From a virus: a DNA stretch of 64,000 nucleotides. The position numbers were made by a program, and so were the translations under genes. Below are positions 16,497 through 16,560 of the stretch, in pieces. The stretch spans positions 1-64,000 of the IMG/VR virus record IMGVR_UViG_3300023094_000009; one strand, 5' to 3'. Position 1 is the stretch's first letter. Every line of letters begins with the position of its first letter. The notes beneath the pieces were generated by a model. That model was not told the origin of the DNA. It searched no databases and saw nothing but the letters and a program-made list of their open reading frames with translations.

Positions 16497-16560
16497 AGTC
16501 GTTTGAGCGACTATAAACAGAACTTTAGGCTCAAAGCGTAACCCTTCGGGGTTGGTAGTT
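16497..16560 (+). ncRNA. pistol self-cleaving ribozyme
   Basis: P1 AGTCG/CGACT with loop TTTGAG; linker ATAAACAG; P2 AACT/AGTT; TTAGG; pseudoknot strand CTCAAA; GCG; P3 AACCC-TTCG-GGGTT; G|T cleavage site at 16555/16556. Same register as the env25 pistol. Confidence 0.93.

Follow-up and report, generated by a model that had tools for sequence, protein, structure and literature searches.

A complete pistol ribozyme closely following a 67-amino-acid open reading frame in a large uncultured phage

The window analyzed here, a stretch of 64,000 nucleotides (nt) from the IMG/VR virus record IMGVR_UViG_3300023094_000009, carries a pistol self-cleaving ribozyme between a small open reading frame (ORF) of 67 amino acids (aa) and a long stretch that is free of ORFs (Table 1). 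The source record is a 141,284-bp virus with 34% G+C that is estimated to be 95% complete, and all sizeable ORFs of the window, including all neighbors of the pistol, lie on the + strand. A first-pass annotation had claimed a pistol ribozyme at 16497–16560 and proposed a search with the Rfam pistol model as its check. We ran this search with cmscan, and it bears the claim out: RF02679 (Pistol) is found at these positions on the + strand and is the sole match above gathering score in the window among all 4227 Rfam models. The match spans model positions 1–68 of 68 without truncation, its score exceeds the curated gathering threshold, and together these place it in the Rfam pistol family. It was repeated in further scans, with an E-value of 3.4e-13 when the whole genome is scanned. 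Judged by its sequence, the element is a complete, canonical pistol self-cleaving ribozyme on the + strand; its family membership, its intact core, and its family-typical placement are demonstrated for this copy.

Table 1. Features of the pistol locus, in window coordinates
Feature	Position	Strand	Basis
Terminator-like hairpin and U-run, then UUUUUCCUUUUU	15668..15709	+	Fold -16.8 kcal/mol, z -2.75; putative function
Promoter-like site 'P1', TTGTCAAT-N14-TATCTTTG	16205..16234	+	Motif; putative activity
67-aa orphan ORF, TAA stop 6 nt before helix P1	16287..16490	+	ORF list
Pistol ribozyme, complete	16497-16560	+	RF02679, 66.6 bits vs gathering cut-off 34.5, E 6.4e-10
Helix P1, AGUCG/CGACU	16497-16501 / 16508-16512	+	Sequence and cmscan alignment
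Pseudoknot, UUUGAG (P1 loop) / CUCAAA	16502-16507 / 16530-16535	+	6 Watson-Crick pairs
Linker AUAAAC	from 16513	+	Sequence and cmscan alignment
Helix P2, AACU/AGUU, 4 bp	16521-16524 / 16557-16560	+	Sequence and cmscan alignment
Active-site strand: purine-32 = G16528, G33 = G16529, pseudoknot strand 16530-16535, G40-C41-G42 = 16536-16538	16528-16538	+	cmscan alignment to conserved UUAgGC...AGCGU
Helix P3, U-G closing pair, UUCG cap 16545-16548	16539-16544 / 16549-16554	+	Sequence and cmscan alignment
Predicted scissile G16555-U16556, 2-nt P3-P2 junction	16555-16556	+	Junction columns of Rfam model; class rule (PMC4604425, PMC6154101)
ORF-free stretch after ribozyme, 803 nt to next convincing gene (17364)	16561..17363	+	Tables 11, 4, TAG=Q
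Second promoter-like site 'P2', TTGTCAAT-N14-TAACTTTG	16803..16832	+	Motif; putative function

The elements of the window copy follow one another in the same order as in the class at large (RF02679; Weinberg et al. 2015; Harris et al. 2015, PMC4604425): P1, pseudoknot, AUAAA linker, purine-32 and G33, G40-C41-G42, P3, and GU junction. Nucleotide numbers are those of the env25 pistol, whose structures (5K7C and 5KTJ) are reviewed in PMC6154101, transferred to this copy by alignment position. The loop of the P1 hairpin makes a 6-bp pseudoknot with the P2–P3 junction, entirely from Watson–Crick pairs; the core nucleotides of the AUAAA linker, of UUA-purine-G, and of AGCGU, including G40, C41, and G42, are all present in the cmscan alignment; and P2 and P3 are joined on their 3′ side by a 2-nt GU junction. 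Cleavage of pistols falls inside this strict 2-nt junction, usually GU (PMC4604425; PMC6154101), and in the Rfam model the two junction columns correspond to the scissile site that the first-pass annotation had predicted, 16555/16556. Its register of the remaining elements is likewise correct at every coordinate, both on the sequence and in the cmscan alignment.

Every conserved position of the Rfam model is kept in the window copy. Departures from the Rfam consensus number two, and both affect one pseudoknot pair, U-A in the window copy where the class has C-G; they compensate each other because they lie on opposite sides of the same pair. We find no structural difference from the class. The linker before P2 is 1 nt longer, which is common in the viral sample described below, and position 32 is G, not A, G being the commoner state in the Rfam consensus.

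A search of IMG/VR for the core pattern found at least 118 pistol loci, with more than 100 distinct copies among the matches listed, and the survey results given below refer to viral copies among these matches. An alignment of 20 sequences, the window copy and 19 of these, shows 99% pairing across P1, pseudoknot, P2, and the U-G pair that closes P3, with 98–100% in the columns of P1 and the pseudoknot. The pseudoknot by itself is 98% paired and shows changes on both sides at four of its six pairs; in the window copy no position of P1, pseudoknot, or P2 is left unpaired. The covariation score of the alignment is 0.705, compared with 0.153 in shuffles and at most 0.107 with slid partners. Core nucleotides are invariant in the 20 sequences, several of these columns being fixed by the search pattern. 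Because the pattern fixed core columns in this way and the parser demanded P2 pairing, the covariation that is independent of selection is that of P1 and the pseudoknot only. These data also bear on whether the locus might hold a decayed, inactive relic or a chance resemblance to a pistol, which we consider highly improbable: P2 is indeed short (only 4 bp) and AU-rich, but 4 bp is what the Rfam model itself has, all conserved core nucleotides and all four helices are intact, and the score lies 32 bits above the curated cut-off (E 6e-10).

The 2015 description of the class counted about 500 pistols, many of them near phage genes (PMC4604425), a habitat that the window copy shares. The phage that carries it probably infects a member of the Bacteroidota, because one of its proteins, of 532 aa (genome positions 63474–65072), combines a CUB domain with a type IX secretion C-terminal sorting domain (Por_Secre_tail, 36 bits vs. 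a cut-off of 27). A similar copy is found in Bacillus phages B4 and B5S (Herelleviridae, Bequatrovirus), which belong to an unrelated phage family and infect an unrelated host phylum: the pistol downstream of BCB4_0084 is 91% identical to the window copy over 46 core nt. The B4 pistol, on the gene strand, scores 71.4 bits; a small hypothetical ORF stops 3 nt ahead of it, and about 85 nt lie between it and the next gene, whereas 803 nt separate the window pistol from the next convincing gene.

We further surveyed the placement of viral pistols relative to genes, measuring the distance from the stop of the nearest upstream same-strand ORF to helix P1 and from the 3′ end of the ribozyme to the start of the next ORF, with crude calls of same-strand ORFs of 40 aa or more in 89–91 listed viral copies. 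The median distance is 6 nt on the upstream side and 80–85 nt on the downstream side, and the stop lies within 10 nt of helix P1 or overlaps it in 57 of 91 copies. In 65 copies the upstream ORF is the nearer of the two, in 24 the downstream ORF (binomial p 1.6e-5), an asymmetry that is conservative since longest-ORF calling tends to pull predicted starts upstream. The window copy, in which the TAA of the ORF at 16287–16490 ends 6 nt before helix P1, as had been claimed in the first annotation, is exactly typical in its upstream distance, and its downstream gap is the longest among the approximately 90 viral copies listed. Such stop-hugging placement fits a role in 3′ end formation of the upstream message, not in 5′ preparation of the next.

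The same survey shows that the A of TAA is often shared with helix P1, and that unrelated viral contigs hold one to three pistol copies each, several of them two or three. Approximately 14 of the viral copies have expanded P3 arms, giving ribozymes of 97–203 nt, lengths that are approximate because they come from a rough parser.

The 67-aa ORF and the pistol look like a short transcription unit of their own. The last ORF of the preceding small-gene operon ends at 15663, and the terminator-like hairpin downstream of it closes that operon; a promoter-like site lies upstream of the 67-aa ORF, and nothing terminator-like lies between this ORF and the ribozyme. For these three reasons the pistol should be co-transcribed with the ORF. 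The composite motif TTGTCAA-N(14-22)-TAnnTTTG, to which the promoter-like sites correspond, occurs twice in the window, compared with 0.11 occurrences expected, and the 141-kb genome has no others. Both sites have TTG and TAnnTTTG boxes that match the Bacteroidota promoter consensus. The 67-aa ORF itself has no PHROG or Pfam family and no relative in viral contigs, and finds only itself among 5.8 billion proteins; the structural look-alikes of its product in a protein atlas are generic small helical proteins, uninformative on function.

Two further kinds of sequence element surround the unit. The near-palindromic word (A)TTGTCAAT has four copies within 600 nt around the pistol (16204–16212, 16615–16623, 16685–16693, and 16802–16810), out of eight in the whole window, a total that is near chance. 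Two of the four make up the −33 parts of the promoter-like sites and the middle two face each other, and the cluster looks like a set of putative operator sites for a DNA-binding protein. Small GC hairpins follow both promoter-like sites (16236–16262 and 16853–16866), GCC-GGAA-GGC a few nt after the first and AGCCU-AGCG-AGGCU about 20 nt after the second; they may be 5′-terminal stabilizing stem-loops, with fold z-scores that are not significant. A reading of the helix P1 hairpin as a minus-strand terminator was rejected, as there are no minus-strand genes and the full pistol lies on the + strand.

We consider it very likely that the element cleaves itself co-transcriptionally on the + strand and so uncouples the 67-aa message, with the ribozyme at its 3′ end, from the RNA downstream. 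Among pistols, G40 is the general base and purine-32 and G42 are active-site residues (reviewed in PMC6154101), and the products carry a 2′,3′-cyclic phosphate and a 5′-OH (Harris 2015, PMC4604425), so the end chemistry assumed in the first annotation is established for the class. Cleavage has been shown experimentally for the pistol of Alistipes putredinis, itself a Bacteroidota species (PMC4604425). In the window phage, the 67-aa ORF and the pistol would be transcribed together, probably from the promoter-like site at 16205–16234, and helix P1, the 6-bp pseudoknot, P3, and the short P2 would fold while the RNA emerges. G16536, the equivalent of G40, would then activate the 2′-OH of G16555, and the chain would break between G16555 and U16556. 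The upstream product would be a monocistronic message of about 315 nt in which 59 of the 64 ribozyme nt form a compact cap at the 3′ end, with a terminal 2′,3′-cyclic phosphate. The downstream product would start with 5′-OH-UAGUU and be attached only through the 4-bp AU-rich P2, for which reason we expect it to be released. The likely effect is that stability and translation of the small early message would be uncoupled from the downstream RNA, while the polymerase would not be stopped. We infer three of these steps: transcription from the first promoter-like site, in vivo cleavage, and the effect on RNA fate.

Such transcript processing would fit the kind proposed for prophage hammerheads, for which processing of polycistronic phage RNAs has been suggested (Perreault et al. 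2011, PMC3088659). Clustered prophage hammerheads likewise lie between phage genes, and are proposed to cut long transcripts into gene-length messages (PMC3088659). They differ in being another ribozyme class that occurs in arrays of several, whereas the window genome has one pistol as its only known ribozyme in 141 kb. At gathering score the pistol is in fact the only Rfam family in the genome, which also has one tRNA-Met; no second ribozyme appears at this score elsewhere in the 141 kb, nor near the pistol at E up to 5, where the other RNA families give only sub-threshold noise. Several ribozymes in successive gaps, as in a ribozyme-punctuated operon, are thus not what this single-ribozyme genome presents.

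Several points weigh against self-cleavage that shapes the fate of the 67-aa message. Cleavage of this particular copy is predicted from class membership, and the promoters are assigned from motif matches only. Among the loci of relatives of a 101-aa gene downstream, no related phage has the element at the same place, and therefore conservation of the arrangement cannot be shown. Folding of the isolated 64 nt gives an unremarkable nested structure (z −1.1), as is expected because the RNA is pseudoknotted and the folding programs cannot model pseudoknots; under the same limit, folding of the full message predicts that the 3′ strand of P3/P2 pairs with ORF sequence.

The first annotation had also claimed that cleavage splits the 67-aa messenger RNA from a downstream non-coding RNA (ncRNA). 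The co-transcription that this entails is one we likewise infer from the layout of the unit; a defined ncRNA is not established, given the fold score of the flank, its lack of homologues, and the second promoter-like site. If the transcript from the first promoter-like site continues, the downstream stretch would carry a 5′-OH end, and the pistol might serve mainly to mature the 5′ end of a defined early ncRNA that starts at U16556, with the 67-aa message incidental. We find this doubtful. The 803 nt hold no convincing ORF with tables 11 or 4 or with TAG=Q, and the minus-strand ORFs of 92, 49, and 51 aa within them match no Pfam family; so long an ORF-free stretch in an otherwise tightly packed genome, and the longest downstream gap in our viral sample, speak for an ncRNA, but no Rfam family matches the flank even at E up to 5. 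Homologues of the flank were found neither in GenBank phages, nor in 140 loci of relatives, nor in the pistol-bearing loci among the matches listed, and without them the flanking RNA offers no covariation test.

Folding gives a divided picture. For the segment 16556–16800, predicted folding does not exceed that of shuffles (z −0.9 on the + strand and −0.1 on the − strand). The z-score drops to −3.6 only if the segment is extended into the second promoter region (16556–16840). Behind this value are the palindromic word ATTGTCAAT, present in inverted copies, and a 9-bp perfect complement between the new 5′ end (16557–16565) and 16821–16829. This pairing counts in favor of an ncRNA, but the inverted promoter- or operator-like words ATTGTCAAT and GTTGTAAC on which the score depends may act in DNA, and the second promoter-like site could make the larger ORF-free part independently. 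Less likely still is a specific version in which the pistol is a 5′-end maturation device of an immediate-early ncRNA, the 5′-OH RNA from U16556 pairing with 16821–16829 and closing a domain of about 270 nt that would overlap the transcript of the second promoter. The pistol lies in one of only two genome units that carry the promoter-like motif TTGTCAAT...TAnCTTTG. If true, this version would mean that a ribozyme generates an early regulatory RNA in a phage of Bacteroidota.

Two smaller features of the flank are the inverted word GTTGTAAC, which overlaps the −7 box of the second promoter-like site (16821–16828), and a direct repeat, TACAACG(G)TAATTAAA, which occurs directly after the ribozyme at 16560–16575 and again 156 nt on, at 16716–16730.

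Small ribozymes of phages usually have a sporadic distribution, and this element is no exception. Five viral genomes that share the 101-aa gene downstream, of which three are complete or nearly complete, have no pistol; the Rfam model finds none in 20 viral loci around this gene, and a loose core pattern finds none in 60 viral and 80 metagenome loci of its relatives. These 60 and 80 loci have almost no neighbors in common with the window, and nothing in them resembles the non-coding flank of the pistol. The relatives are distant, with at most 72% identity in the 101-aa protein and about 40% for the best relatives of the DNA polymerase, and for this reason the absence of a pistol at the same place says little. 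An 86-aa downstream ORF has no relatives in viral contigs, and none of the 118 pistol-bearing viral loci listed has flanks related to the window.

A pattern of this kind might arise if the pistol, although active, were a passenger of a horizontally acquired cassette (promoter, orphan ORF, and ribozyme) with no role tuned to the phage. The orphan state of the 67-aa ORF, the five genomes and 100 other loci that have the 101-aa gene and no pistol, and the scatter of pistols, in one to three copies each, over many unrelated viral contigs among the matches listed are what such a history would leave. We nevertheless judge it quite unlikely, with neither cassette boundaries nor repeats nor a second copy found, with relatives too distant for their lack of a pistol to be informative, and with an intact core that argues for selection on activity.

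Cleavage that releases the 67-aa message is thus our preferred account of a copy that is real but ordinary: canonical, single, and without companion ribozymes, of a ribozyme class whose presence in phages was recognized in 2015. The several hundred catalogued pistols gain another well-formed member, from a large uncultured phage, which alone changes nothing. Of wider use are the placement survey of about 90 listed viral copies, which points to 3′ end formation of the upstream message, and the simplicity of the unit, in which one ribozyme and one ORF behind a promoter-like site would make a simple test case for the effect of a ribozyme on the stability of a phage message.

The genome also encodes GroEL, ribonucleotide reductase, a DnaB-like helicase, and a family-A DNA polymerase. 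In a search for a link to RNA repair, RtcB was not found in the genome; T4 RNA ligase 1 gave no match, but none in the control genomes either, which makes this negative uninformative. Upstream of the unit, between the terminator-like hairpin and the first promoter-like site, about 500 nt (15700–16200) are non-coding and of odd composition, with a run of about 10 G near 15745, a G+C content of 40% compared with 34% overall, and several C-rich and T-rich blocks. A packaging site, an origin, or a physical end of the genome may lie in this segment.
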